From a virus: DNA of 38,886 nt. The stretch is from IMG/VR virus record IMGVR_UViG_3300035670_000585, positions 1-38,886 of that record; one strand, 5' to 3'. The notes beneath the pieces are model-generated. The model did not search any database. It worked only from the letters and a program-made list of their open reading frames with translations, and had not been told where the DNA came from. This document shows positions 1-38,886 of the stretch, one piece after another. Every line of letters starts with the position of its first letter. The first letter of the stretch is position 1. A program made the translations under genes and the position numbers.

Positions 1-127
1 AAGCGACCCGGATCCCGTTCCACCATAATTTATATTCTCTTAAAAGGGCGATCATGTCGTCAGGGACTATTGATGTACGTTCAGCACCATTTGTTTTTAA
101 TTCGCCCTCAAATGTGCCTTTTCGCTT
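1..127. repeat. Terminal direct repeat, copy 1 (circular-assembly overlap)
   Basis: Bases 1-127 are identical to 38760-38886. The repeat lies inside the integrase reading frame, so the ends join to give one intact gene. Confidence 0.95.
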
Positions 128-883
128 TGTATACTGCATTGATCTCATGGTTGTTATGGATTTGTTTGCAAAGTTTATATCCCTCCAGCGCAGCCCCATG
201 ATCTCCTCCCGGCGAAACCCTGTGAATATTGCCAGCCAAATCATAACCCTATACTTGAGCTCATCAGCTGTGAGATCGTCTACTGCATCTATGAGTTGTT
301 GCACCTGGTCAATGGTATACATATTATTTTCACGTTCTTTTTTTGCTGCCAGTTCTGCCTTGGTCGGCTGCGGTGGCTTTACCCGTTCACAAGGATTCTC
401 AGTAATATACTGCCATTGTACGGCTTGAGAGAAAATCATGGACAACGCAGTGTGATGATGTTTTATATTTGTTGTGTGCAATCCACCCGGCTTACCATCC
501 AATCTGGATCCGTCCTGCTGCAATAGGTCATAAAAGTCTAGTAGGTGAGTGGGGCGAATGTCTTTTAGTTTTTTATTGCCCAGGTATTTTATTAGCCTTG
601 GTTTGCATCCTAGAAACCAGTTTATGGACTTCTCTTTCATGTTCTTTTCAGCGTAACGCTCAAACCAGTAGTCAATAAACTCAGACAGTTTAACCCGGTC
701 TTTGTCATGCACGTCAATTCGTCCCTGTTCTGACACAAAAAGAGCCAACAACTTTTCAGCCTCCCTTGGTCCAGAGGCATCAACTATTTTATACTTTCGG
801 ATCCGTTTACCGACCATGTCATACCCAATATGGACGGTAAGCTCCCATTTGCCATTTTTAAGCTGCCTATATGATCCAGCCAT
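1..883 (-). CDS. int: Tyrosine integrase, N-terminal and central part (continues through the junction into 38380-38759)
   Basis: The minus-strand frame is open from ATG 883 (SD GGAGGG upstream) to the window edge. Translation starts MAGSYRQLKNGKWELTVHIGYDM and includes LAIFTGFRREEIMGLRW (catalytic Arg region). It is in frame with the 38380-38814 ORF via the 127-bp overlap. It is absent from the ORF track because it runs off the edge. Confidence 0.9.
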   Translation of the reverse strand, partial: MAGSYRQLKNGKWELTVHIGYDMVGKRIRKYKIVDASGPREAEKLLALFVSEQGRIDVHDKDRVKLSEFIDYWFERYAEKNMKEKSINWFLGCKPRLIKYLGNKKLKDIRPTHLLDFYDLLQQDGSRLDGKPGGLHTTNIKHHHTALSMIFSQAVQWQYITENPCERVKPPQPTKAELAAKKERENNMYTIDQVQQLIDAVDDLTADELKYRVMIWLAIFTGFRREEIMGLRWRDINFANKSITTMRSMQYTKRKGTFEGELKTNGAERTSIVPDDMIALLREYKLWWNGIRVA

Positions 884-11000: not shown

Positions 11001-11072
11001 CTGATGTCAGCTAAGGGTAAGCGCATGGGGTTGGTTGCTCCATGATCCAGGGTTCAAGTCCCTGGCATCGGT
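11001..11072 (+). ncRNA. tRNA-like element (non-canonical cloverleaf)
   Basis: 7-bp acceptor stem CTGATGT/GCATCGG with 2 G-U pairs. T arm is CAGGG-TTCAAGT-CCCTG, and the D loop contains GGG. The anticodon stem is 7 bp with loop TTGGTTG (GGT), the variable region is 3 nt, and U8 is missing. Confidence 0.3.
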
Positions 11073-11196
11073 CTAAATGGAGTTAGCAGACACAGGATCA
11101 TATGGTCCTGTTATGTTTAGGGAAACGGTACATCACGATGGTAAGCGCAGGGGTGGGAGTGCTGTGATGTAAAGCAAAATTTATTTGAGGTGTTAT

Positions 11197-12400: not shown

Positions 12401-12889
12401 ATGAGTAAATATGAAACGCATGTCGAGCCTTATTTAGATAAAATAGCGTACTGGCGCAAAGACGGGTTAACAGAAGAACAGATTGCAAAAGACAAATTAC
12501 ATATAGCCTATTCAACATTAAATTTGTATAAAAAACAAAAATCGGAACTTTCGGAAGCATTAAAAGACGGGAAAGACGATTTAATAAGAGAGTTAAAAGA
12601 AAGCCTATATAAAAGAGCTATGGGGCATGAGGTCGAGGAAACAAAGACATATATTGAAAAAGACGACTCAGGCAAAGAAAAGAAAAAGGTTGAAAAAACA
12701 AAGCGAATGATACACTCAGACACATGTTTAATATTCGCATTAAAAAACCTCGACCCTGAAAACTTTAAGGATCGGCGAGAGTTAAAGCAAGAAGTAAACC
12801 AGACTATACGCACACTCGGCTTTGATCTGGTTGATGAAAATGGGAACGTAATTGATTTAAAAGAGGGCGTTGCAGATGTTGATTTATGA
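12401..12889 (+). CDS. terS: Terminase small subunit
   Basis: Lies directly upstream of and overlaps the large terminase. It has an N-terminal HTH-like segment (GLTEEQIAKDKLHIAYSTLNLY) and is basic and acidic. Confidence 0.7.
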   Translation: MSKYETHVEPYLDKIAYWRKDGLTEEQIAKDKLHIAYSTLNLYKKQKSELSEALKDGKDDLIRELKESLYKRAMGHEVEETKTYIEKDDSGKEKKKVEKTKRMIHSDTCLIFALKNLDPENFKDRRELKQEVNQTIRTLGFDLVDENGNVIDLKEGVADVDL

Positions 12890-14120
12890 CCGTCCAAAAG
12901 TTGACCGCCGGGCATTTAATGACGCATACTGGCCTTATTTAAAATACAATACCAGGACGCAGATATATTTCGGTGGTTCATCGTCAGGGAAAAGTTATTT
13001 CCTCGCGCAGCGTACAATTTTAGATGTAATTTACAACGATAGAAACTACCTCATATGCAGAAATACAGCATCAACGATAAAACGGTCTGTTTTCAACGAA
13101 ATAGTCAAAGCAATAATAAACTATAACGCTTACTCTATTTTCAACATAAACAAAACCGACATGGTGATAACGTGCTTGATAAACAGCAAGCAAATTTTGT
13201 TTTGTGGCCTTGACGATCCAGAGAAAATAAAGTCCATAACTCCAATCAATGGGGTTATAACAGATATATGGGTTGAGGAGGCAACAGAAACAGAATACAC
13301 CGCAGTAAAACAACTCCAAAAACGTTTGAGAGGTATGAGCGCATCAAAAAAACGGTTAGTGTTATCGTTTAACCCAATTTTGCAAACACACTGGATTTAT
13401 AACGAATATTTTGGCAAGTGGGATGATAATAAGACGGTTTATGAGTCCAGTGATTTATTTATTCTTAAAACGACGTATTTAGATAACAAATTCTTAACAG
13501 ATGATGACCGCCGCGCACTCGAAAATGAAAAAGACCCATATTATTACCAAGTTTACACGCTCGGCAACTGGGGTGTGCTTGGTGCTGTCATATACAAAAA
13601 CTGGGGTATTGAGGATTTGAGTGATGTTAAAGCATCGTTTGATAAATATAAGATTGGTCTCGACTTTGGATTTGCTCAAGACCCATCCGCTCTGATCGTG
13701 ACGCATTACGACAAGGCCAGAAAGCGCATATATGTTTTCGATGAGGTCTACGCAACCAACCTTGACAATGAGGAGCTGGCAATGATCATCCGTGAAAAGG
13801 TGGACAAAAAGCCAGTAACGTGTGACAGTGCAGAGCCGAAAAGTATTGCCGAGTTAAAAAAATACGGGGTATATGCCATTGGTGCAAAAAAAGGGCCGGA
13901 CAGCATTGATTATGGCATCAAGTTTCTGCAAAAGCACGAGATTATAATTGATGTGAAATGCCAGAACTTTAAAAACGAAATCCAGCAGTACAAATGGAAA
14001 GAGGATAAAACCGGAAACGTATTACCTGTTCCTATTGACAAAAATAACCATTTGTTGGATGGGTTACGTTACGCATATGAGGACGAAATGAAAGAATCGC
14101 AAGGAATATATTTTATATAA
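12876..14120 (+). CDS. terL: Terminase large subunit (PBSX/Terminase_3-like)
   Basis: Walker A is GGSSSGKS, followed by a C-terminal nuclease region. ATG 12876 lies 8 nt after AAAGAGGG; the track start 12870 is a TTG. Confidence 0.85.
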   Translation: MLIYDRPKVDRRAFNDAYWPYLKYNTRTQIYFGGSSSGKSYFLAQRTILDVIYNDRNYLICRNTASTIKRSVFNEIVKAIINYNAYSIFNINKTDMVITCLINSKQILFCGLDDPEKIKSITPINGVITDIWVEEATETEYTAVKQLQKRLRGMSASKKRLVLSFNPILQTHWIYNEYFGKWDDNKTVYESSDLFILKTTYLDNKFLTDDDRRALENEKDPYYYQVYTLGNWGVLGAVIYKNWGIEDLSDVKASFDKYKIGLDFGFAQDPSALIVTHYDKARKRIYVFDEVYATNLDNEELAMIIREKVDKKPVTCDSAEPKSIAELKKYGVYAIGAKKGPDSIDYGIKFLQKHEIIIDVKCQNFKNEIQQYKWKEDKTGNVLPVPIDKNNHLLDGLRYAYEDEMKESQGIYFI

Positions 14121-14247: not shown

Positions 14248-16302
14248 GTGGGATTTATAGACAAGTTAATGGGTCAGTTTCAGCGCAAAATGACACAGTA
14301 TACATACCAATGGAACTATGGCAAGCCAGTTTGGGCAACTCAAAAAGATGAGGCATACATACGTGAGGCATATAATAAGGTTGTCTGGGTTTATGCTTGT
14401 GTTGCCATGATTGCCAGTTGCACATCCTCTGTGCCTTGGGTGCTATACCGTAAGCGCGGCGGTAAACTAAACGAGATACCAGATCATCCAATTTTAAACA
14501 TTGTTAACAACAGAGTGAATCCTTGGCTGTCAAGCCGGGACTTTTTTGATTTGTGGGCCACATATTTGGCTCTACAAGGCAAATTTTATGCCGAAATGAA
14601 TAATCCGACAATCCCGACACAATTGTCACCTATTTACCCCCATTTTGTCAGCCCTGTGCCTGATAAAAAACAATTTGTCTCCGGGTTTGAGTTTCAAATG
14701 GGTAGTGACAAAATTATTTACCCGGCTGATTCGGTGATCTGGTCAAAGTTTAATGATCCATTAGATCTTTACCAAGGGTTGTCACCAATCAGGGCAATGG
14801 CGAGAACAATTGACACAGAGAATCAGGCTGTCGATTGGAATAAAACCACATTGCAAAATGCAGCGGTACCACCGGGAGCAATTTCGGCGGTAAACATTTC
14901 ACCAGAGACAAAAGAGAAGCTGCGTGAGGATTGGCTGAATAGGTACGGTGGCTCAAATAATGCTAGGGTGCCATTGCTATTGGATGCTGAGAGGATTCAA
15001 TACACATCCTTTGGACTAAGCCCTGTTGATATGGATTTCTTGAATCAGCGCAAGTTGAACCGCATAGAAATATGTTCGGCTTTTGGTGTGCCTGGTCAGG
15101 TGGTCGGGGATCCAGAGGGACAAACATATGCAAATTATGAGGAGGCACTAAAATCATTCTGGCAAAACACTATAGTGCCGAGGTACCTGGACAACATCAA
15201 ATCTACACTAAATAGTGACTTAGTTGCCAGATACGCGGACAATTTAGTGTTGGATTACAACCTCGATGACATAACCGTCTTACACGAATCAATTGATGCC
15301 ATCTCTGACAGGGTAACAAAATTATTCGTCAACAACATTATAACCAGAGAAGAAGCGAGAGAGGCTTTAGGCTATGAGGCAGAGGCTGACGGCGAATATT
15401 ATGCCGAGGTTGCATCAAAAATATTGCAGGGTGGCAAGACTAATCCGGTGCAAACTGGGGACGATGCTGACCAGAGCCTGACAGAAACAGATGATACCTT
15501 GGACGATGGTGAGACTGACAGAGTAAAAAAAAACTTAAAATCCGTTGACATGACGGAGGAGCAAAAAGCACTCTACTGGAAAGCATACGAGGGCAAGCGG
15601 TCAAAGTATTACAGCCGGCTTGAAAGCAAAGTTAAAGGTTTGTTTGATGATGAGCGCAAAAAAATTTCCAGTGTAGAGGCTGAAACTTATTCGGTATACA
15701 GGGCACAGGTTAATGCGGTGATCAGCAAAGGACAGGTTGATTGGCGAAACACATTGACAGCCGCTTATATTGCCATAATTGACGATTTTGGCTCAGAGGT
15801 TTACAGAGACCTGGAGAGCAAAAAGGCATTTGGTTTCAGTGTTTTTGCACAGGCTATAATGCAGTTCGTTTCATCAACCGTTGCTGAGATGGTGGTCAAT
15901 ATTACTGACACGACAAAGACCCATATTAAGCAGAGGATTGATGAGGGAATAACAGAGGGTATGCCAATCGCTAAAATAGCGAAATGGATTGACAACCTCT
16001 ACCTGGACGAAATTATACCAAACAGGTCAAAGGTTATTGCACAGACAGAGACCATCCGGGCATCAAATTACGGTTCATATGCAGCTGCACAGCAAGCAAG
16101 TTCAAACGTGAAAAAGATATGGATTCCAACCTATGACCAGAGGACACGGGATACGCATTTTGCTATGGGTGCTCATGCTCCTGTTGATATGGACGGATAT
16201 TTTACAGTGGGTGACAGCCGTATGCAGTACCCGGGAGACCCAAACGGGTCAGCAAAGGAGACAATCAACTGTCGGTGTGCAATAGGCTATGTTAGAAAAT
16301 AG
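14248..16302 (+). CDS. Portal protein fused to Mu F / SPP1 gp7-like head morphogenesis domain
   Basis: The N-terminal roughly 430 aa are portal-like. The C-terminus has IAQTETIRASNYG...DQRTRDTHFAMGAH...INCRCAIGY (Phage_Mu_F signature). Confidence 0.8.
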   Translation: MGFIDKLMGQFQRKMTQYTYQWNYGKPVWATQKDEAYIREAYNKVVWVYACVAMIASCTSSVPWVLYRKRGGKLNEIPDHPILNIVNNRVNPWLSSRDFFDLWATYLALQGKFYAEMNNPTIPTQLSPIYPHFVSPVPDKKQFVSGFEFQMGSDKIIYPADSVIWSKFNDPLDLYQGLSPIRAMARTIDTENQAVDWNKTTLQNAAVPPGAISAVNISPETKEKLREDWLNRYGGSNNARVPLLLDAERIQYTSFGLSPVDMDFLNQRKLNRIEICSAFGVPGQVVGDPEGQTYANYEEALKSFWQNTIVPRYLDNIKSTLNSDLVARYADNLVLDYNLDDITVLHESIDAISDRVTKLFVNNIITREEAREALGYEAEADGEYYAEVASKILQGGKTNPVQTGDDADQSLTETDDTLDDGETDRVKKNLKSVDMTEEQKALYWKAYEGKRSKYYSRLESKVKGLFDDERKKISSVEAETYSVYRAQVNAVISKGQVDWRNTLTAAYIAIIDDFGSEVYRDLESKKAFGFSVFAQAIMQFVSSTVAEMVVNITDTTKTHIKQRIDEGITEGMPIAKIAKWIDNLYLDEIIPNRSKVIAQTETIRASNYGSYAAAQQASSNVKKIWIPTYDQRTRDTHFAMGAHAPVDMDGYFTVGDSRMQYPGDPNGSAKETINCRCAIGYVRK

Positions 16303-16317
16303 AAAGGTGGTGCATCA

Positions 16318-16983
16318 ATGTTTGAATATAAGAGCTTTGACTTTGAGATTAAGGCTCAAGAGGACGGAGTGTTTGAAGGTTATGCCTCGATGTTCAATAA
16401 TCTGGACAGCTACAGGGATATAGTCGTTAAAGGGGCATTTAACAGGACCATAAATAATAACAGTAACAGGGTTAAGGTATTGTGGCAGCATGATATAAGC
16501 GAGCCAATCGGCAAGCCGATCATGATGGCTGAGGACGAAAAAGGATTACACGTCAAAGCGAAACTTTGCCTTGGTACTGAAAAAGGCCGACAATGCTTTG
16601 AGCTTATGAAAGACGGTGTTATAAATGAGTTGTCGATTGGATATGACACCATACAAGACGAATACGATTCAAAGAATAGAATCAGGTATTTGAAAGAGGT
16701 CCGTTTGTGGGAGTTTTCGGCAGTTACATTCGCCGCCAATGATATGGCCAAGGTCAACAATGTAAAGCGATTTGACAGATTACTCGATGAGCTGAAATCG
16801 GGGAGGGTATTGTCATCGACCAACAGAAGCAGGATTCAAGAAACGATTGACGCACTAATGGCACTCTTGATTGAGACTGACCCGGAGAGATCCACTCAGA
16901 CTCTTGAAGATCCGCCTAAAAATAGCGATATTGACCCGGACACCGTCCACTCAATACTCGAAGCAATTAAGCAGTACAAGTAA
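16318..16983 (+). CDS. HK97-family prohead protease
   Basis: FEGYASMFNNLDSYRDIVVKGAF...VKVLWQHD...PIGK, located between portal and capsid. Confidence 0.85.
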   Translation: MFEYKSFDFEIKAQEDGVFEGYASMFNNLDSYRDIVVKGAFNRTINNNSNRVKVLWQHDISEPIGKPIMMAEDEKGLHVKAKLCLGTEKGRQCFELMKDGVINELSIGYDTIQDEYDSKNRIRYLKEVRLWEFSAVTFAANDMAKVNNVKRFDRLLDELKSGRVLSSTNRSRIQETIDALMALLIETDPERSTQTLEDPPKNSDIDPDTVHSILEAIKQYK

Positions 16984-17010: not shown

Positions 17011-17037
17011 AAACGCCGAAAGTGGGCGTTTTTTTGT
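17011..17037 (+). terminator. Hairpin plus T-run between protease and capsid genes
   Basis: AACGCC-GAAAGTG-GGCGTT followed by TTTTTT. Confidence 0.5.
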
Positions 17038-17066
17038 TGCCCAAAATTTTGAAAGGAGTGTGTCAG

Positions 17067-18293
17067 ATGGAGACTAAAAACAACCAAACGCAGGTTGACG
17101 TTTTGCTTGCTGAGATTAAGGCAATCGCCGAAGGCAAAGCAAACAAAGATGATTACAACAGTAAAATGGCCGAGTTAAAAGAGGCTATGGACAACAGAAA
17201 CAAAGAGGTTGACCGTCAGATTGGTGACGTTGAAACCAAGTTCGAACAGCGCATGGCTAAAATGACAGATTCGATTACAAACGGTTTCAAGGCAGTTCAT
17301 CAGCCTGCAATTGCACCAGAGCAGAAGTATGGTAAGAGCTTTGGTGAGTTCCTGAGAAATGTTAAGTCAAAAGCAATGGAAATTAAGGATTTAGCAGAAG
17401 GAACTGGCGCGTCCGGTGGATACCTGGTGCCTGACCAGTTCATGGCTGAAATTCTTAAGGTAGACCTTGAGCAATCCGTTGTCAGATCCAACGGTGCAAG
17501 AATCATCAACATGACATCAAATAAGCTGATGATCCCGGCACTGGACATGGACACTAATGCAGCCGGTTCAATTTACGGTGGAGTTGCTGCTTATTGGGGC
17601 TCTGAAAATGGGACTATGACAGAAACACAGCCTACTTTCAAGAGGGTTACTCTTGAACCCAAAAAATTATACGGATACTGCGAAGATCCCAACGAACTCG
17701 AAGCTGATGCCATTGTTTCTATGGGCAGCCTGTTAACCCAGATGTTCGGTGAGGTTCTGGCGTTCGAGGAAGATTACGCTTTCTTGACAAACGCAACACC
17801 TGGCAGACCTCAAGGGATTATTACCGCACCTGCTTACATCACAGTAAGCCGCGCAACCTCCTCACAGGTCAACACAACCGACATCATCAACATGATGGCA
17901 AGGTTTAAGGGCAATATGAGCAGAGCAAAATTCTTTGTGAATCAATCTGTTCTGCCTTACATCTATGCACTGCAAGATCCAAATGGTTCATATATTTGGG
18001 CACCTTCAGCAGCTGCAGGATCACCCGGCACCCTGTACGGCAGACCTATTGTCGTAACAGAAAAACTGCCTGCGCTTGGCACAACCGGAGATGTTCTGCT
18101 TGCCGACATGGGATTCTACCTCATCGGTGACAGGGCTGGAATGTCTGTCATGACATCCGAGCATTTCAAATTCCAGAATGACCAGATGGCCTACAGAGTG
18201 ACCAAGAGAGTTGACGGTCAGGTATGGCTTGACAGCGCAATAACACCACGAGCAGGAGGCAGCACTCTGTCACCGTTCGTTGGAATCGGTTAA
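17067..18293 (+). CDS. Major capsid protein, HK97 fold family
   Basis: ATG 17067 follows AAAGGAG. It has an N-terminal coiled delta-like region followed by a capsid body of about 300 aa, in the position after the protease. Confidence 0.85.
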   Translation: METKNNQTQVDVLLAEIKAIAEGKANKDDYNSKMAELKEAMDNRNKEVDRQIGDVETKFEQRMAKMTDSITNGFKAVHQPAIAPEQKYGKSFGEFLRNVKSKAMEIKDLAEGTGASGGYLVPDQFMAEILKVDLEQSVVRSNGARIINMTSNKLMIPALDMDTNAAGSIYGGVAAYWGSENGTMTETQPTFKRVTLEPKKLYGYCEDPNELEADAIVSMGSLLTQMFGEVLAFEEDYAFLTNATPGRPQGIITAPAYITVSRATSSQVNTTDIINMMARFKGNMSRAKFFVNQSVLPYIYALQDPNGSYIWAPSAAAGSPGTLYGRPIVVTEKLPALGTTGDVLLADMGFYLIGDRAGMSVMTSEHFKFQNDQMAYRVTKRVDGQVWLDSAITPRAGGSTLSPFVGIG

Positions 18294-18312: not shown

Positions 18313-18699
18313 ATGAATAAAATCATGGAAGGTATTACTGTTTCTACACAGGTGTTCCCAACGGCTACAACTGGAATCAGCGGATCAGCAACTGTTGACA
18401 TGCTGAACTACCATAAGGCCGTGGCGAAGCTTTTCGCTCACCGTTTGCCTGATGCAAAGGGCGAAGGCGTTATAACATTATCGCTGTACGAACACACCGC
18501 CGCAGCAGCTGCAGGAACTCAGGTTGCTGCATCTGTTGTAACAGGTTCTATCACATCCGCATCAGATGTATACCTTGAGGCAGAAATTGATGCTACAAGC
18601 CTGACCAAACGTTATGTTTATGCCCGTGTCGTGTCTGCAACAGGGACTGTTGTGGCTGCAACAATCGAAAGAGCAGAACCAAGATACGAGCCCGTTTAA
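18313..18699 (+). CDS. Small Ala/Thr/Val-rich head-associated protein (unknown function)
   Basis: 128-aa ORF directly after the capsid gene with SD GAGGGGG. Contains HTAAAAAGTQVAASVVTGS. Confidence 0.6.
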   Translation: MNKIMEGITVSTQVFPTATTGISGSATVDMLNYHKAVAKLFAHRLPDAKGEGVITLSLYEHTAAAAAGTQVAASVVTGSITSASDVYLEAEIDATSLTKRYVYARVVSATGTVVAATIERAEPRYEPV

Positions 18700-18715
18700 T
18701 TTAAACTGATTCAAA

Positions 18716-18769
18716 TGCCGTGGATAGGCTTGCAACCGAAAAGAGGGTTCCTGACCTCCTGCCACGGCA
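18716..18769 (+). other. Conserved hairpin element A (related to element B)
   Basis: The stem TGCCGTGG/CCACGGCA encloses GTGG-a-TAGG...C-GAAAAG-a-G-GTT...CTCC-TGCCAC. It lies in the gap upstream of the first glycosyltransferase. Confidence 0.6.
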
Positions 18770-18815
18770 GACTTTTCAGGAATATATTCAAACACTTACA
18801 GGAGGTGTTTTTTTT

Positions 18816-19709
18816 ATGCAACTTTTTAAAAATATTATTAACTTTTTCATCAAAGTATATTTAAATCAATACAAATCAAAATATTTTGAGTTGTTACAAC
18901 AGCATCAACAATACAAGGCGTTCAAAGATAACGAAATTCAAAATATTAAAAATGTTTTAAGTGCAATTGAAAAAAAACAAAGTGCAGAACAATCAGCAAT
19001 TTCTCCTCTCAATAAAACAACAAATATTTGTATCGGCATCCCCCACATGGGGATATTTCATTGGCAAACACTAAGCGCGCTTTTGTCGCTCAGAGTGCCG
19101 CCAAACTGCGTTATTAAATACCACATGGTTGGCAGTTCGTTGGTATATGAGGCGAGAGACAGCATAGCCAAATTTGCGATTGAAAATGATTGCGATTATG
19201 TGCTTTACCTTGACAGTGACATGGTGCCGCCAAGCGACATGATTATGAAAATGTTAAACACATTCGATCAGCGACCAGAATCGGGGTTGGTGACAGGCAT
19301 GGCATTTAAGCGGATACCACCGTTTCAGCCGTGTTTCTATACTAAAGTTACATACGACACAAAGATGATGAGACCTACACTGGAGAGCCCGATTGAGTTC
19401 CCGGATGAAGGGCTTATTGAGATTCAAGGTTGCGGAATGGCCTGTTGCATGATTAAAACTGAGGTATTCAGACAGGTTGATGCTGAATTGATTGGAGACA
19501 GAAAACATTATTTTTTCCCACTGCCGAACATGGGCGAGGATTTGACGTTCTGCCTAAAAGCAAAGCACAAGGCAATTAAAATGTATGTTGACTTGTCAAT
19601 TGACGTTGGTCATATTTCATCCATGCCAATAGTCAGGGATCATTTCAGGGCATGTTATAACGAATATAAGTCCAAAAACACCTCTGAACCGTTATTTAAG
19701 GAGGTGTAA
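18816..19709 (+). CDS. GT-A fold glycosyltransferase (GT2-like)
   Basis: ATG 18816 follows ACAGGAGG. Has YLDSDM (DxD), GCGMACCMIK and MGEDLTFC. Confidence 0.7.
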   Translation: MQLFKNIINFFIKVYLNQYKSKYFELLQQHQQYKAFKDNEIQNIKNVLSAIEKKQSAEQSAISPLNKTTNICIGIPHMGIFHWQTLSALLSLRVPPNCVIKYHMVGSSLVYEARDSIAKFAIENDCDYVLYLDSDMVPPSDMIMKMLNTFDQRPESGLVTGMAFKRIPPFQPCFYTKVTYDTKMMRPTLESPIEFPDEGLIEIQGCGMACCMIKTEVFRQVDAELIGDRKHYFFPLPNMGEDLTFCLKAKHKAIKMYVDLSIDVGHISSMPIVRDHFRACYNEYKSKNTSEPLFKEV

Positions 19710-20293
19710 TGATGCATATAAAAAAATATTGGGACAGCAGCAGAGACGACTTTTCAAACAGACCTACAATTTTATTTCAGCCTGACCATTTGGGATTCTT
19801 GTCGGAGTGCAAAAAAATAATTGACCTTGGATCTGGCAATGGGATCCTCGTGAACAAATTAAACGAGATGGGACACCAGGCACACGGCATCACATACAAC
19901 CAAGGCGAGGTAAATCAGCGAGTACACCAAAATGTTATATTTGGTGATATGCAGGATATACCGTTTGAGGATGACACTTTTGACGGATTCGTAATGTGGG
20001 ACAGCCTAGAACATTGTCCATCGGCTTATATTGCGCTTTGTGAGGCAAGGCGAGTTGTAAAGGATAATGGCAAAGGCTTAATTTTTATGCCGGGGCTCAA
20101 CTGGTTGAACTGCCATTGCCATATAACATGTTACACTGTGCCACAGATGGAGCAGTTATTTAGACAGTCAGGATGGACACTTAATAAAGTACATGAGAAA
20201 AAATACCCAAACGAGCCAAACAAATACTGTGAGGGCATGGCTGTTTATGAGGTTATAAACGTGCCCGGTTACAAGGCGGTGTTTGAACAATGA
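19709..20293 (+). CDS. Class I SAM-dependent methyltransferase
   Basis: IIDLGSGNGIL (motif I) and FDGFVMWDSLEHC. Its start overlaps the previous stop. Confidence 0.75.
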   Translation: MMHIKKYWDSSRDDFSNRPTILFQPDHLGFLSECKKIIDLGSGNGILVNKLNEMGHQAHGITYNQGEVNQRVHQNVIFGDMQDIPFEDDTFDGFVMWDSLEHCPSAYIALCEARRVVKDNGKGLIFMPGLNWLNCHCHITCYTVPQMEQLFRQSGWTLNKVHEKKYPNEPNKYCEGMAVYEVINVPGYKAVFEQ

Positions 20294-20976
20294 TTCATGG
20301 GATGATGTTGGTCAGAAACGAATCAGGACGCTGGCTTGAGCAAGTGTTAAAACAAATGAACCAAATATGTGACCGTGTTGTTATTCTGGACGATGCCAGT
20401 ACAGACAACACGGTTTCTATTTGCGAGGAGTTTGGCGAGGTATTTAGATCCAATAAACAAAAATGGACAACAAACGAGCTGGAGGCGCGACAAAAACTCT
20501 GGCAGCTAACGACAAACAAAGCAAGCGACAACGATTGGATCCTCTGCCTCGATGCTGATGAATTATTTGTTGACGGGCATATTGATTACATCAAATATTT
20601 ATTTCACGTTTTACCAACAGAGGTTGATGCCGTTGGTTTTAGGTTGCATGACATGTGGTCAGACACTCATTACAGGGATGACCAGTTATGGCAGGCACAT
20701 CGTTATATTTGGCCAATGGCAGTAAGGTATAAGGAGCGGTTCATTTACCACTGGCTGAATAAAAAACTGCATTGCGGACGGTTCCCTGGCAACGCATCAC
20801 AAAAATGTTACCCGACGATGATACCGATAAAGCACATGGGATGGAGCCGAGAGGCTGACAGGATTAAAAAGCACGAAAGATATTTACAGTGTGATCCTGA
20901 CGGTAAAAATGGCATTATGGAGCAGTATATAAGCATTATGGATACCAATCCAACGTTAAAATTGTTTGGTACATAG
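20290..20976 (+). CDS. Family 2 glycosyltransferase
   Basis: MLVRNESGRWLEQVL...VVILDDASTDNT and LCLDADELF. ATGA overlap with the upstream gene. Confidence 0.75.
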   Translation: MIHGMMLVRNESGRWLEQVLKQMNQICDRVVILDDASTDNTVSICEEFGEVFRSNKQKWTTNELEARQKLWQLTTNKASDNDWILCLDADELFVDGHIDYIKYLFHVLPTEVDAVGFRLHDMWSDTHYRDDQLWQAHRYIWPMAVRYKERFIYHWLNKKLHCGRFPGNASQKCYPTMIPIKHMGWSREADRIKKHERYLQCDPDGKNGIMEQYISIMDTNPTLKLFGT

Positions 20977-20982
20977 GCAGTT

Positions 20983-21042
20983 AATTTGTGGCTAGGTCGA
21001 CGGACTGAAAAGGAGTTACCCCCTTTCTCCCTGCCACAAATT
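20983..21042 (+). other. Conserved hairpin element B (related to element A)
   Basis: The 10-bp stem AATTTGTGGC/GCCACAAATT encloses TAGG...C-GAAAAG-GA-GTT...CTCCCTGCCAC. It lies in the gap upstream of the rSAM gene. Confidence 0.6.
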
Positions 21043-21076
21043 TATCTATAAGGGGCTTAACGAAAGGGGCGTTATT

Positions 21077-23101
21077 ATGAATGTTATATTGTGTTACCCA
21101 CCAAAGAGAAATTATCCCGGCTATGGTCAAGACAAAAGATGGTTGCCTTTAGGTATTGCATCACTTGGGGCATATATAAGGCAAGAATTACCGGATTTAA
21201 AAGTGACGTTGCTGGATTTGTTTGAATACAGCATGGATGAGGCTTTTGCAAAAATATTCAAAAGTATTAATCCAGACGACACCAATATATTAGGTTTTAC
21301 TTGTTTCACAGAACAAAGGAATAGTGCTTTTGAGCTATGTAAACGGGTTAAATCAATAAGACTTTTTGATGATTCAATGGCAAAGTATTGGGGAATTGAC
21401 AAAAGCGACTATAATGTTGGTCAAATAATTACTGTCGTTGGTGGACCACACGCTTTTATAATGGCGAATCAAATTGCCGAGCATTACCCTTATATTGACC
21501 ACATCATGAAAGGTGAGGGAGAGCGGTCTATTGTCAACTTAATCAAAAATTATATCGACGGTAGAGAGTCAAAGCGCATTATTGAGGCTGACATAATTCA
21601 TAACCTTGATGAATTACCTCACTGTATAGACGGATTTGACCTATTTGCCAACGTCAGCAATATGGTCGAGGCAGAAGCACCGATTATATTCAGTCGAGGT
21701 TGCACAGATTATTGTTCATTTTGCAGCACGACAAAATTTTGGCATGGATACCGCAGCCGGTCAGCTGAAAACGTATTTGCCGAAATGATGAAATATAACC
21801 AGCGGTATGGGACGACGAAATTTAAATTTCACGATGACGCATCCACCGCAGATTTAGACAACTGGAAACGGTTATGTGGATTCATTGTAGATTATAAATT
21901 TGAATACGAAATAACAGCCAGAGCAGACCAGTTTGACGATGAACTGATTGACTTACTCGCTCGATCTGGATGCAAACGTGTTGCAGTCGGCATTGAATCA
22001 GGCAACGAAAATCTTAGAAATGCCATGAATAAGCGGCTTGACATGGACGTTGCCAAAGCTAACATGAAGAAGCTAATGGCAGCAGGCATCGAGGTTGTAA
22101 TGCTGTTTATTATTGGTTATCCAGGTGAAACAGACGGAACCATACAAGAGACCATCGACCTGATCCGAGAGGTTAAGCCGTCAAGTTGGTGTTGCCAACC
22201 ACTAATGATATTCCCCGGCACAAAAGTTTATCGTGATTGTGTTAAGTCAGGATGGATGAAGGATGATTACTGGCTGCAGGATTTACCACAGCCATACTAC
22301 ATAAAGGATGTACCATTTCGGCAGCTGCAGGAGTGGACAAGACAGGTTCAAACGTGCATGAAAAAAACTAATGTTCTAATAGCTGCACCAGTGCGCCAAA
22401 ATGAGGTCAAATTCAAGCTATACATAGATAGCCTTAATAATTTGACCATACCGGACAATGTAAACGTGCAGCGACTTTTTGTTCTCCACAACAGCGAGCA
22501 TCTGAAACAGTATTTGTCACCAACTGACACCGTTGCAATAGCCAATACAGATGATGATTATATTTGCGATGAAAAGACGCATCAATGGAAGCAGCACAAC
22601 CTCAATTTTGTGGCAAACATCAAAAATCAAATCATAGAAATTGCGGTTAAAAACGGCTTTGACTATGTTTTCTTTGTGGACAGTGACCTGATACTGCATC
22701 CTGATACATTGTCGAATCTGTTGAGCCTTGACCTAGACATCGTGGCAGAAATATTTTGGACAGCTTGGGATCCGGGATCTCCATTGATGCCAAACGCATG
22801 GGATTATGACCACTATAGTTTTCTGCCTGGTACCATTGAAAAGTATAAAACGCCGGGTGTGTACCAATGCGGAGGCACTGGCGCAGCAATATTAATTAAT
22901 CGGCGTGTATTTGATGCAGGAGTAAACTACAACAACATACCAAACCTTTCTATGTGGGGAGAGGACAGGCATTTCAGCATCAGGGCAATGGCAGCAGGAT
23001 ACCCGATACACATTGACACTCATTACCCAGCAGTGCATTTATACAGAGAAAGTGACGTTGAAAAAGTATTAAAGGAGCGTGAACAAATTGCTGACAAGTA
23101 A
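21077..23101 (+). CDS. B12-binding radical SAM enzyme fused to a C-terminal GT-A-like glycosyltransferase domain
   Basis: N-terminus has VVGGPHAF and KGEGERS (cobalamin-binding domain) and GCTDYCSFC (CxxxCxxC). From about aa 430 onward: FVDSDL (DxD), GGTGAAILINRRVF and WGEDRHFS. Confidence 0.75.
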   Translation: MNVILCYPPKRNYPGYGQDKRWLPLGIASLGAYIRQELPDLKVTLLDLFEYSMDEAFAKIFKSINPDDTNILGFTCFTEQRNSAFELCKRVKSIRLFDDSMAKYWGIDKSDYNVGQIITVVGGPHAFIMANQIAEHYPYIDHIMKGEGERSIVNLIKNYIDGRESKRIIEADIIHNLDELPHCIDGFDLFANVSNMVEAEAPIIFSRGCTDYCSFCSTTKFWHGYRSRSAENVFAEMMKYNQRYGTTKFKFHDDASTADLDNWKRLCGFIVDYKFEYEITARADQFDDELIDLLARSGCKRVAVGIESGNENLRNAMNKRLDMDVAKANMKKLMAAGIEVVMLFIIGYPGETDGTIQETIDLIREVKPSSWCCQPLMIFPGTKVYRDCVKSGWMKDDYWLQDLPQPYYIKDVPFRQLQEWTRQVQTCMKKTNVLIAAPVRQNEVKFKLYIDSLNNLTIPDNVNVQRLFVLHNSEHLKQYLSPTDTVAIANTDDDYICDEKTHQWKQHNLNFVANIKNQIIEIAVKNGFDYVFFVDSDLILHPDTLSNLLSLDLDIVAEIFWTAWDPGSPLMPNAWDYDHYSFLPGTIEKYKTPGVYQCGGTGAAILINRRVFDAGVNYNNIPNLSMWGEDRHFSIRAMAAGYPIHIDTHYPAVHLYRESDVEKVLKEREQIADK

Positions 23102-23744
23102 GTTTTTTTATGGCGATGATGAACGATTTGACAGTTTGGATGGTTTTGAGCTGCCATCTGATTGGTGGAGCAGACCGCACGAATATGCCTGGGCAAGTAA
23201 GTTTTTGAAAGACGATGAAATAATAATTGATGCCGGTTGTGGGACAAATCACCCATTCAAGGATTATGCAGCTGCCAGGGTAAAAAAGATTTTTGCAATT
23301 GACAAAGATCCTGCAATCAAACAGTTTAATGACACAGATACATTGATGCACGTCCACAGCGATATTTGCAAGTTGGATGGTGATTTTGCACCGAAATCAA
23401 TTGACAAGGTGTTTTGCATCAGCGTTTTAGAGCACATGTACCCGGTTAACATTGTTGATGCCTTGAAACAATTTAAAACGGTGCTCAAGGATGACGGACA
23501 GATTATATTGACCATGGATTACCCTTATTTGATGCCTGAGACACTTATAAGCTTGGTCAATGATGCAGGTTTATGTTTTGCTGGATCTGTTGACTATGAT
23601 TTTGACAAACACAAGGCAATCAAAGGGTCATACGGAAACTTAAAATGTTACCGGGCAGTATTGTGCAAGCCAGAGGACGAAACAGAAACAAAACCGGTAG
23701 CACCAAAAGAAACTAAGCCAGTTAAACCTAAAAAGACTAAATAG
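23079..23744 (+). CDS. Class I SAM-dependent methyltransferase with Lys/Pro-rich C-terminal tail
   Basis: IIIDAGCGTNH (motif I) and ISVLEHM, with tail ETKPVAPKETKPVKPKKTK. GTG 23079 or TTG 23088 start overlaps the rSAM gene end. Confidence 0.7.
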   Translation: MNKLLTSKFFYGDDERFDSLDGFELPSDWWSRPHEYAWASKFLKDDEIIIDAGCGTNHPFKDYAAARVKKIFAIDKDPAIKQFNDTDTLMHVHSDICKLDGDFAPKSIDKVFCISVLEHMYPVNIVDALKQFKTVLKDDGQIILTMDYPYLMPETLISLVNDAGLCFAGSVDYDFDKHKAIKGSYGNLKCYRAVLCKPEDETETKPVAPKETKPVKPKKTK

Positions 23745-23755
23745 GAGGGATGACC

Positions 23756-24295
23756 ATGCCGAATCCAATGGCAACAGCTAAAGACTTTGTAACACAGGCA
23801 TTTAGGACAATTGAGGTTGAGCATAACAACATCCATGAGGGTGTATTTTTTGAGTACCCAATAATAGGTAGTTTACCGGCAGCTGGAACATTTGTTTTTT
23901 CTTTAAAAACACCAGCCGAAGAGTATGTACATTATCGCAACGAAAAACTAGCATGTAGCGGAGATAAATTGTCGATAGCCTTGCAAGAAGGAGCAACATT
24001 AACAGGTGGAACTACCGTTTCAGCAATTAACCACAATAGAGTATCATCAAAAGTATCATCTATGATAGTAAAAGTTGACGCAACGCTTACCACAGCTGGA
24101 ACAACTATATCAATAGGATATATAGGCGGTGGTACTGGTGTAGGTGGCACAAGAGGAGGAGGAGAAACTAGTCAAAGTAATGAATATGTATTAAAAAGAG
24201 ATACTGTGTACGCTGTTATTGTTACCAACAACAGCGCAGCGACAAACACAATAGTATTAAGCCCACAATGGTATGAAGAAGGAGCCAGTGGATAA
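23756..24295 (+). CDS. Beta-rich Gly/Thr-rich protein of unknown function (probable virion protein)
   Basis: ATG 23756 follows TAGGAGGGA. It has a GGGTGVGGTRGGGE loop and lies between the enzyme cassette and the head-tail connector. Confidence 0.6.
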   Translation: MPNPMATAKDFVTQAFRTIEVEHNNIHEGVFFEYPIIGSLPAAGTFVFSLKTPAEEYVHYRNEKLACSGDKLSIALQEGATLTGGTTVSAINHNRVSSKVSSMIVKVDATLTTAGTTISIGYIGGGTGVGGTRGGGETSQSNEYVLKRDTVYAVIVTNNSAATNTIVLSPQWYEEGASG

Positions 24296-38379: not shown

Positions 38380-38886
38380 TCATTTGGCTTGTTTTTCTCT
38401 GTTTTTCAAAAGTGCGTTCTCCATTTTTATTGAAACCTCGGCTGACTTTTCTTTGACCTTGTGTCTATACTTTTGAATAATCATTTGAGTGGATGCGTGC
38501 CCAGCATCATCTGCTATTGTACCAAAATCTAAACCAGATTCAACCAAAATTGAAATATGCAAATGCCTGAGGCCATGAAAGTTTAAATGGGGGAGCTGCA
38601 GTTTTTGTTTTTGCTCTGCTGTCATCTCTGGATCAGCAAGAATCTTTTTATTGATTCGCTGAATGAATTTTGGAAACCATGACGATATTGTGTCAACGTG
38701 CATAGGCTTACCGCTCCACTGGATGAAAAGGTTATCTGTATTGTGCCATTTTTGACCACAAGCGACCCGGATCCCGTTCCACCATAATTTATATTCTCTT
38801 AAAAGGGCGATCATGTCGTCAGGGACTATTGATGTACGTTCAGCACCATTTGTTTTTAATTCGCCCTCAAATGTGCCTTTTCGCTT
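38380..38886 (-). CDS. int: Tyrosine integrase, C-terminal catalytic part
   Basis: Contains HGLRHLHIS (HxxR) and GHASTQMIIQKYRH (His plus catalytic Tyr). It continues upstream into 1-883, giving a joined length of 1263 nt (420 aa). Confidence 0.9.
   Translation of the reverse strand, partial: KRKGTFEGELKTNGAERTSIVPDDMIALLREYKLWWNGIRVACGQKWHNTDNLFIQWSGKPMHVDTISSWFPKFIQRINKKILADPEMTAEQKQKLQLPHLNFHGLRHLHISILVESGLDFGTIADDAGHASTQMIIQKYRHKVKEKSAEVSIKMENALLKNREKQAK
38760..38886. repeat. Terminal direct repeat, copy 2 (circular-assembly overlap)
   Basis: Exact copy of 1-127. Confidence 0.95.

Follow-up and report, generated by a model that had tools for sequence, protein, structure and literature searches.

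Virus record IMGVR_UViG_3300035670_000585 (38,886 bp, analysed here over its whole length as 'the window') carries a cassette of enzyme genes at 18816-24295 whose two halves are each preceded by a short structured element, A (18716-18769) and B (20983-21042). Since the enzyme genes lie between the head genes and the head-tail adaptor gene, we read them as a ~5.5-kb insert in the head-morphogenesis operon. In agreement with a preliminary description made from the letters of the DNA, A and B fill 18700-18815 and 20977-21076, the only non-coding stretches of any size in the cassette; the remaining gene junctions overlap or measure ≤14 nt. The spacing given there is likewise borne out: element A starts 16 nt past the stop codon of a 128-aa head-module gene and ends 46 nt before the ATG at 18816, while element B starts 6 nt past a stop codon and ends 34 nt before the ATG at 21077.

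Identity and anatomy of elements A and B

Both elements match the Rfam family RF02996 (int-alpA) on the strand of the genes, B with 56.8 bits (E = 2.4e-9 over the whole window) and A with 40.6 bits (E = 3.7e-5), the curated gathering cut-off being 35.8. No third match to RF02996 was found in the 38.9-kb window, even at E ≤ 5, and Rfam gave no family other than int-alpA at the two sites at E ≤ 10. Because both pass the gathering score on the gene strand, with no third match beside them, the pair lies beyond chance. The preliminary description had judged A and B to be related, which their common family confirms, and had been unable to match them to a known consensus, which the Rfam scan now supplies.

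The RF02996 model describes a three-way junction composed of an 8-bp closing stem (P1), UA, a short stem P2, GAAAA, a stem P3 with a 9-nt loop, and CU, with a 14-nt tail ending in AAGGG after P1. The junction nucleotides of the family, (C/A)UAG, (C)GAAAAG and CCUG, are present in both A and B; the internal pattern noticed earlier, TAG...GAAAAG...CCTG, is thus that of a catalogued structured motif with conserved nucleotides outside its stems. The sequence described at the two sites and the closing stems TGCCGTGG/CCACGGCA (A) and AATTTGTGGC/GCCACAAATT (B) were found as stated. The parts of the two elements, with J denoting the junctions between stems, X the pseudoknot partner of the P3 loop and X' the Shine-Dalgarno (SD) site, are as follows.

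18716-18769, plus strand: core of element A, int-alpA three-way junction; RF02996 40.6 bits, our own covariance model R1 54.4 bits
18716-18723 with 18762-18769, plus strand: P1 of A, closing stem TGCCGTGG/CCACGGCA
18724-18727, plus strand: J1/2 of A, AUA(G); P2, a short GG...CC stem, 18727-18737; J2/3 GAAAAG, 18738-18743
18743-18746 with 18755-18758, plus strand: P3 of A, GAGG with CCUC; loop 18747-18754
18770-18782, plus strand: linker and X of A; UCAGGAA (18776-18782) pairs with the P3 loop UUCCUGA (18748-18754)
18790-18818, plus strand: expression platform of A; hairpin of AAACACUU (18790-18797) with AGGUGUUU (18803-18810)
20983-21042, plus strand: core of element B; RF02996 56.8 bits, R1 60.7 bits
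20983-20992 with 21033-21042, plus strand: P1 of B, closing stem AATTTGTGGC/GCCACAAATT
20993-20994, plus strand: J1/2 of B, UA; P2, GGUC (20995-20998) with GACU (21003-21006)
21007-21011, plus strand: J2/3 of B, GAAAA; P3, GGAG (21012-21015) with CUCC (21027-21030); loop 21016-21026
21031-21032, plus strand: J3/1 of B, CU
21043-21055, plus strand: linker and X of B; AAGGGG (21050-21055) pairs with the P3 loop CCCCUU (21020-21025)
21058-21079, plus strand: expression platform of B; hairpin of UAACG (21058-21062) with CGUUA (21070-21074)

The platform hairpin of A, with the loop ACAGG, displays ACAGGAGG as site X' ahead of the ATG at 18816, and that of B carries X' in its loop AAAGGGG ahead of the ATG at 21077. 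The tails that follow A and B, GACUUUUCAGG and UAUCUAUAAGG, have no T-run and do not qualify as intrinsic terminators, as had been suspected from the start. We considered whether the leaders have a promoter or terminator of their own and rejected this, since nothing resembling either rises above background at A or B.

A and B are only ~57% identical and were not picked up as a direct repeat; where their P1 and P3 stems differ, both bases of a pair have changed and the pairing is retained. Judging from this degree of divergence and the compensatory stem changes, they are old, constrained structured copies, and a recent duplication, which the preliminary description had kept in view as a way in which its case could fall, is rejected. 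One detail of that description did not survive comparison: the TAGG:CCT pairing that it proposed is not conserved among relatives, whose 3' junction reads UUU; of these three bases only the final U is paired, and its partner is the initial A of AUAG, so that P1 gains one pair. A further pairing that we considered, between the linker CUUUUC and J2/3 GAAAAG, was also discarded: it is perfect in A (-6.1 kcal/mol) and absent in B (-0.7), and in the related locus L003 the linker is still CUUUUC although J2/3 has changed to GACACG.

The int-alpA family came out of the survey by Weinberg et al. (2017, PMC5737381), which put forward 224 candidate structured RNAs; its main text does not discuss the motif. 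A and B have the three stems of RF02996, its junction letters and its 3' tail pairing with the P3 loop. They differ in setting: the copies that gave the family its name follow P4-type integrases in proteobacterial islands, whereas A and B sit inside a siphophage head operon, flanked by head-module and enzyme genes (genomic context is not part of the Rfam model). The integrase gene of the phage is found at the end of the genome, on the strand opposite to A and B, and no AlpA was seen among the window proteins scanned against Pfam and PHROG.

Relatives in phages and proteobacterial islands

Viral relatives were collected by a glycosyltransferase profile search, which yielded 80 viral loci on which R1 was run; the E-values of R1 are rough because its calibration was shortened. 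In 25 sources R1 found a leader copy immediately 5' of the enzyme gene and in its orientation, and reading the other upstream regions added about ten more whose J2/3 is GACAAG, GAUAAG or ACAAAG and which the filters had missed. In about 25 viral contigs, all from uncultivated phages, the leader lies between a ~130-aa head gene and the glycosyltransferase gene, and an open reading frame (ORF) of ~130 aa precedes the leader in most related phages. At locus L011 the order is capsid, 130-aa gene, int-alpA match (41.7 bits) and glycosyltransferase; the 128-aa gene of the window is 35% identical to the 130-aa gene at the equivalent position there, and the glycosyltransferases (18816-19709 in the window) are 37% identical. 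L003, the closest capsid relative (68% identity), has a 133-aa gene, a diverged element (J2/3 GACACG, no Rfam score) and then the same glycosyltransferase. The distance from the upstream stop codon to P1 is 6-40 nt in this clade, and an ATG follows about 30-50 nt past P1 in every phage copy.

Only six of the 20 phage-clade loci scanned with Rfam pass the cut-off, the other 14 falling below it: the Rfam model under-detects a phage clade with junction variants. In this clade J2/3 is GAAAAG, GAAAG, GACAAG, GAUAAG or GACACG and J3/1 is CCUG or UUU, while UAG and G-A-x-A-A-G are kept. The core fold is nevertheless strongly conserved. In a model-fitted alignment of the phage copies, 96.8% of cells are paired, compared with 35-46% in slid controls, and both sides have changed at 13 of the 17 pairs; in a mixed set of 43 sequences the values are 90.1% and 14 of 17. 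Further copies at the equivalent position in related phages and covarying stems, the two things whose lack would have counted against the preliminary description, were therefore both found. When three related virus records were searched whole with R1, each held one copy. The window holds two and is unusual in its second copy, placed 5' of an extra radical-SAM module.

Several side observations concern these phage loci. In L164 (2877-2990) and L156 (1762-1880) an extra hairpin (GGGACATTTATGTCC) is inserted between site X and the SD hairpin, and the capsid and 133-aa genes of L003 are separated by a terminator-like hairpin that has an A/T run (2850-2925). The ~130-aa gene is Ala/Thr/Ser-rich and has no Pfam or PHROG match (window 18313-18699; L011 5351-5743; L003 2942-3343); it always stands between the capsid gene and the leader with its glycosyltransferase, and its product may be a decoration protein or a target of glycosylation.

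The island copies come from a sequence-pattern scan of one genome per species, which gave 120 loci; complete int-alpA elements could be parsed at 53 of them, mostly in Burkholderiales and other Proteobacteria. Of 33 same-strand ORFs upstream, 29 encode a P4-type tyrosine integrase, and these ORFs often end 8-30 nt 5' of P1; for about half of the island copies, the upstream ORF is hundreds of nt away. On the downstream side, an SD-preceded ORF starts 33-45 nt past CCUG in 30 of the 36 island copies parsed for it. The ORFs 3' of the island copies are mutually unrelated (29 genes, almost no Pfam matches), and the first gene past the integrase-adjacent RNA is hypervariable across L012-L131. In a few copies, at L103, L104 and L033, no X site can be recognised, perhaps through decay. 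Of 101 Burkholderiales genomes sampled, 18 have an RF02996 match above the cut-off; of 151 sampled genomes of the phylum that contains the Clostridia (also that of a Clostridiales metagenome-assembled genome, MAG), none has. Genomes of Aeromonas and Acidovorax are among the carriers of an island copy.

Loop complementarity and a candidate translational leader

The same layout recurs across phyla, in every complete copy from GC-rich islands as well as AT-rich phages: the 3' strand of P1, a U/C-rich linker, site X, the SD hairpin and the start codon. Site X is purine-rich and complementary to the P3 loop; next to it stands a hairpin of 4-9 bp that holds the SD sequence X' in its loop, and the start codon comes about 1-14 nt past this hairpin. 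The element is always oriented like the gene downstream. P3 loop and site X covary as partners, as in the following examples.

Island copies: P3 loop CCUUCA, site X UGAAGG
Island copies: P3 loop ACUUCA, site X UGAAGU
Island copies: P3 loop CCCUG, site X CAGGG
Island copies: P3 loop CAGCCU, site X AGGCUG
Island copies: P3 loop CCGUG, site X CACGG
Island copies: P3 loop CCCUA, site X UAGGG
Phage copies: P3 loop CCUGUA, site X UACAGG
Element A: P3 loop UUCCUGA, site X UCAGGAA
Element B: P3 loop CCCCUU, site X AAGGGG

Since MAFFT alignment of full leaders shifted the registers, the pseudoknot was assessed without an alignment, by comparing cognate with non-cognate duplex energies. Across 62 leaders, cognate loop-tail duplexes average -7.8 kcal/mol, compared with -4.9 kcal/mol for tails of other loop classes, and none of 2000 permutations matches this. 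An SD-presenting hairpin directly past X was found in 52 of the 62 leaders, with 44 distinct stems, against 25 ± 3.9 (maximum 38) in shuffled tails; these counts come from the stricter of two hairpin finders, the looser one having found 44 of 62 in shuffled tails. The P3 loop is also matched to the SD loop X' (cognate -7.45 against permuted -5.79 ± 0.23; none of 5000 permutations as good). X' copies X down to letters that are not part of the SD sequence: AGGCUG is followed by GAGCUG, CACGG by ACGG, and UGAGGGAG occurs twice. With the SD hairpin kept closed, X is the stronger loop partner in 43 of 48 leaders. In A the loop-X duplex has -11.3 kcal/mol and the loop-X' duplex -8.4 kcal/mol; in B the values are -9.5 and -14.1 kcal/mol.

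The position on the coding strand, the narrow distance to the start codon and a loop that matches both a neighbouring site and the ribosome-binding site (RBS) together argue for control of translation initiation at the RNA level. Furthermore, an upstream stop codon 6-40 nt before P1, with no promoter standing out, makes it probable that the leaders are internal to a late polycistronic mRNA and are co-transcribed with the upstream head gene. We therefore propose that A and B probably act in cis as translational leaders within the late mRNA. Of the functions that the preliminary description had listed, a translational control element is the one favoured by the evidence, and a recombination scar finds no support; for a processing site and a protein-binding site, also on its list, the evidence points neither way.

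How such a leader might work can be sketched as follows. The RNA folds as a compact three-way junction whose pyrimidine-rich P3 loop resembles an anti-Shine-Dalgarno sequence; this loop is bound in a pseudoknot by the purine-rich site X of the 3' tail, and the small hairpin directly behind X displays the true SD sequence X' a few nt before the start codon. As a near copy of X, X' can pair with the same loop. With the loop on X, the RBS would be exposed and translation on; with the loop on X', the SD sequence would be masked. The balance would be set by the two pairing strengths and might be shifted by some input. This specific two-state toggle we advance only tentatively. The comparisons above establish the family, the fold with its pseudoknot, the SD-presenting hairpin, the loop-SD complementarity, the fixed place before a start codon and the spread of this layout over phyla; action on translation, the assignment of the on state and whatever, if anything, flips it are inferences. 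For the phage, such a device could gate translation of the enzyme genes, whose products are needed in catalytic amounts, independently of the heavily translated capsid genes upstream. Since A and B differ in their loop, X and X' sequences, the two halves of the cassette could be controlled separately. In a broader form, int-alpA might be a portable switch that works across phyla, whose loop, a mimic of the anti-SD sequence, alternates between the true RBS and a decoy of its own; a ligand, RNA processing or the ribosome could be the input that flips it, and mobile elements could use it to gate any accessory cassette placed behind. This wider form is possible, but doubtful. As a general trigger we considered opening of P1 by the ribosome that terminates upstream, and rejected it on the stop-to-P1 distances of 6-40 nt and on the remoteness of half of the island copies from any upstream ORF.

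A number of points weigh against a translational leader. Rfam types int-alpA as a small RNA (sRNA) gene and not as a cis-regulatory element. The searchable literature assigns int-alpA no function, offering a gene-order phrase and a list entry. No trigger for a switch emerged from our analysis, and most of the data would also be accounted for by a leader that is fixed and unregulated. Shared ancestry of the leaders is left out of account in the permutation tests, which therefore overstate significance, the independent support amounting to ~8-10 loop classes, and the pattern used in the island search fixes J2/3 and P3, so that the island set is biased. Finally, many homologous glycosyltransferase cassettes have no leader; their slot is filled by a plain hairpin, GC-rich and followed by a U-run. 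Given that leader-free cassettes exist, the leader is not required for the enzymes and is one of several solutions to this junction. In the leader-free loci L141-L150 and L193-L209 the slot lies ~100 nt 5' of the glycosyltransferase start and in some cases contains TTG...TATAAT-like hexamers, suggesting a terminator/promoter solution in place of the leader.

Among the alternatives, C4 of phages P1 and P7 and CI of P4 provide a precedent for a structured RNA aimed at the RBS of its own transcript. These RNAs have a' and b' sites and undergo RNase P processing, and heteroimmune C4 RNAs differ in their loop and target sequences, as A and B do. If A and B belonged to this type, the junction would be excised as a processed antisense RNA, by a cut in the U/C-rich linker or by RNase P at an acceptor-like P1, and its loop would repress its own cassette through X', in cis or in trans, with X as the intramolecular partner in the precursor. 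The sRNA typing by Rfam suits this, as do the closing stem with two hairpins, the loop complementary to the RBS of the next gene and the second copy of the site nearby. C4 antisense RNA, moreover, shares an operon with icd and ant, the genes that it represses, and on paper C4 and CI work as our leaders would: they are small multi-hairpin RNAs made from the transcript that also carries their target, and one of their loops is complementary to the ribosome-binding region of the gene that follows (PMC8198154). This likeness is one of mechanism, loop-RBS complementarity on the same transcript, and not of membership: neither the C4 model nor any other Rfam family matches at A or B even at E ≤ 10, int-alpA having no sequence or structure match to C4 or CI and using a single loop whose partner lies a few nt downstream in cis. 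The tail past P1 has no consistent RCCA, and X, 6-10 nt past P1 and usually the stronger partner, favours an intramolecular fold. Taken together, we regard a C4-type RNA as unlikely. A special case of the cis-acting leader is a riboswitch-like sensor, in which the junction nucleotides UAG, GAAAAG and CCUG form a pocket for a small molecule or host factor whose binding stabilises the pseudoknot and so decides on SD masking. The compact junction and pseudoknot, the conserved unpaired nucleotides and the expression platform that follows have the right architecture for it. We nonetheless give it little credence: the downstream genes, 29 island genes with almost no Pfam matches and the glycosyltransferase and radical-SAM genes here, are unrelated and share no common ligand logic, and J2/3 and J3/1 vary in the phage clade to an extent that, to our knowledge, known aptamer pockets do not tolerate.

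The position of the elements immediately 3' of stop codons (6 and 16 nt in the window, 6-40 nt in the phage clade and 8-30 nt for many island integrases) and the plain hairpin with U-run that fills the slot in other glycosyltransferase phages would also agree with a processing or stability element. Such an element would protect the abundant head-gene message from 3' exonucleases, or be cleaved by an RNase, and would uncouple capsid and enzyme message levels in the manner of T7 RNase III sites or REP elements. A protective hairpin, however, needs neither conserved junctions nor a tail pseudoknot, an SD hairpin and loop-SD covariation, and the half of the island copies that lie far from an upstream ORF do not fit; we consider this explanation improbable. 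Least probable by far is a site acting as DNA, a recombination scar or an attC-like single-strand structure bordering two acquired modules. The elements do mark the 5' border of each half of the accessory cassette, the window has two copies where relatives have one, and motif searches of this kind cannot separate single-stranded DNA from RNA motifs, as the discovery survey points out (PMC5737381). Yet the element is linked to the RBS and start of the next gene through the SD hairpin and the partners of its P3 loop, always on the coding strand; no repeat was found at the 3' border of the modules; and no integron-type integrase is present, the phage integrase lying at the genome end on the other strand.

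The translational-leader interpretation also invites comparison with other systems. In the repZ/repA leaders of IncI-alpha and IncB plasmids an activator pseudoknot, in which a hairpin loop pairs just 5' of the SD sequence, determines initiation; it forms only after translation of a leader peptide and is blocked by an antisense RNA. A and B resemble these leaders in that the loop pairs just upstream of the SD sequence of the controlled gene, and differ in that neither a leader peptide nor an antisense partner was seen and Rfam gives no match. SAM-II and preQ1-II are translational riboswitches with SD-linked pseudoknots. They share with int-alpA a compact pseudoknotted fold and the RBS as read-out, whereas the int-alpA pseudoknot uses a copy of the SD sequence instead of the SD itself, its junctions vary and its downstream functions are incoherent. 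At the level of the genome, A and B recall morons and the glycosylation cassettes of mycobacteriophages, where accessory enzymes also lie between head and connector genes; here the leader marks the 5' edge of the module. Classical morons have their own promoter and terminator, neither of which is detectable at A or B, and expression of the cassette seems to rely on the late transcript together with the leader.

New in the present case are the head-operon setting at a probable virion-glycosylation cassette, the two differently addressed copies heading two modules, a probable non-proteobacterial host and a phage clade whose junction variants fall under the Rfam cut-off. int-alpA has been an orphan structured RNA since it was catalogued in 2017, and the window places the family outside the setting that gave it its name. 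The model of a loop, a decoy X, an SD copy X' and a presenting hairpin is cheaply testable, and would explain how inserted accessory genes are translated at a set level from the transcript of another element. If true, it would give the int-alpA family a function and provide a natural, sequence-programmable translation insulator or switch.

The phage genome and its enzyme cassette

The virus record is complete; it has a terminal repeat of 127 bp and a G+C content of 39.6%. The genes around A and B are listed below.

12870-14120, plus strand: large terminase (Pfam/PHROG matches)
14248-16302, plus strand: portal (Pfam/PHROG matches)
16318-16983, plus strand: prohead protease (Pfam/PHROG matches)
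17022-18293, plus strand: HK97-type major capsid protein (Pfam/PHROG matches)
18313-18699, plus strand: 128-aa small head-module gene (ORF without Pfam or PHROG match), ending 16 nt 5' of element A
18816-19709, plus strand: glycosyltransferase, first half of the cassette (Pfam and PHROG matches)
19709-20293, plus strand: S-adenosylmethionine (SAM) methyltransferase, first half (Pfam and PHROG matches)
20290-20976, plus strand: GT2 glycosyltransferase, first half (Pfam and PHROG matches)
21077-23101, plus strand: B12-binding radical-SAM domain fused to an Anp1-like glycosyltransferase, second half of the cassette
23079-23744, plus strand: methyltransferase, second half
23750-24295, plus strand: 181-aa protein of unknown function, second half
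From 24309, plus strand: head-tail adaptor, then head closure, tail completion, tail tube and tape measure

The cassette at 18816-24295 looks like a virion glycosylation or sugar-modification pathway. For the radical-SAM fusion no close viral relative was found, only its C-terminal glycosyltransferase part being matched. Comparison of the cassette region with GenBank phages by blastn gave no nucleotide relatives. Among genome contigs, a search with the capsid protein found no relative, and a search with the glycosyltransferase matched a single short MAG contig.

The best relatives of the terminase belong to phages of Clostridium (64%), Marinitoga (59%) and Thermoanaerobacterium, and the window also encodes an Amidase_3 endolysin, DnaB_2/DnaD-type replication proteins, DUF1351, RecT/YqaJ and an integrase. 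Judging from its terminase, endolysin and replication genes, the virus is probably a temperate siphophage whose host is a Gram-positive (or Thermotoga-like) anaerobe. It carries a tRNA-Thr (GGU) gene at 11001-11073, with an Rfam score slightly under the tRNA cut-off. The integrase ORF at 2-883 (minus strand) runs off the left end, and a frame on the same strand at 38380-38886 enters from the right end; given the 127-bp terminal repeat, the record may be a circularly closed assembly cut within the integrase gene.

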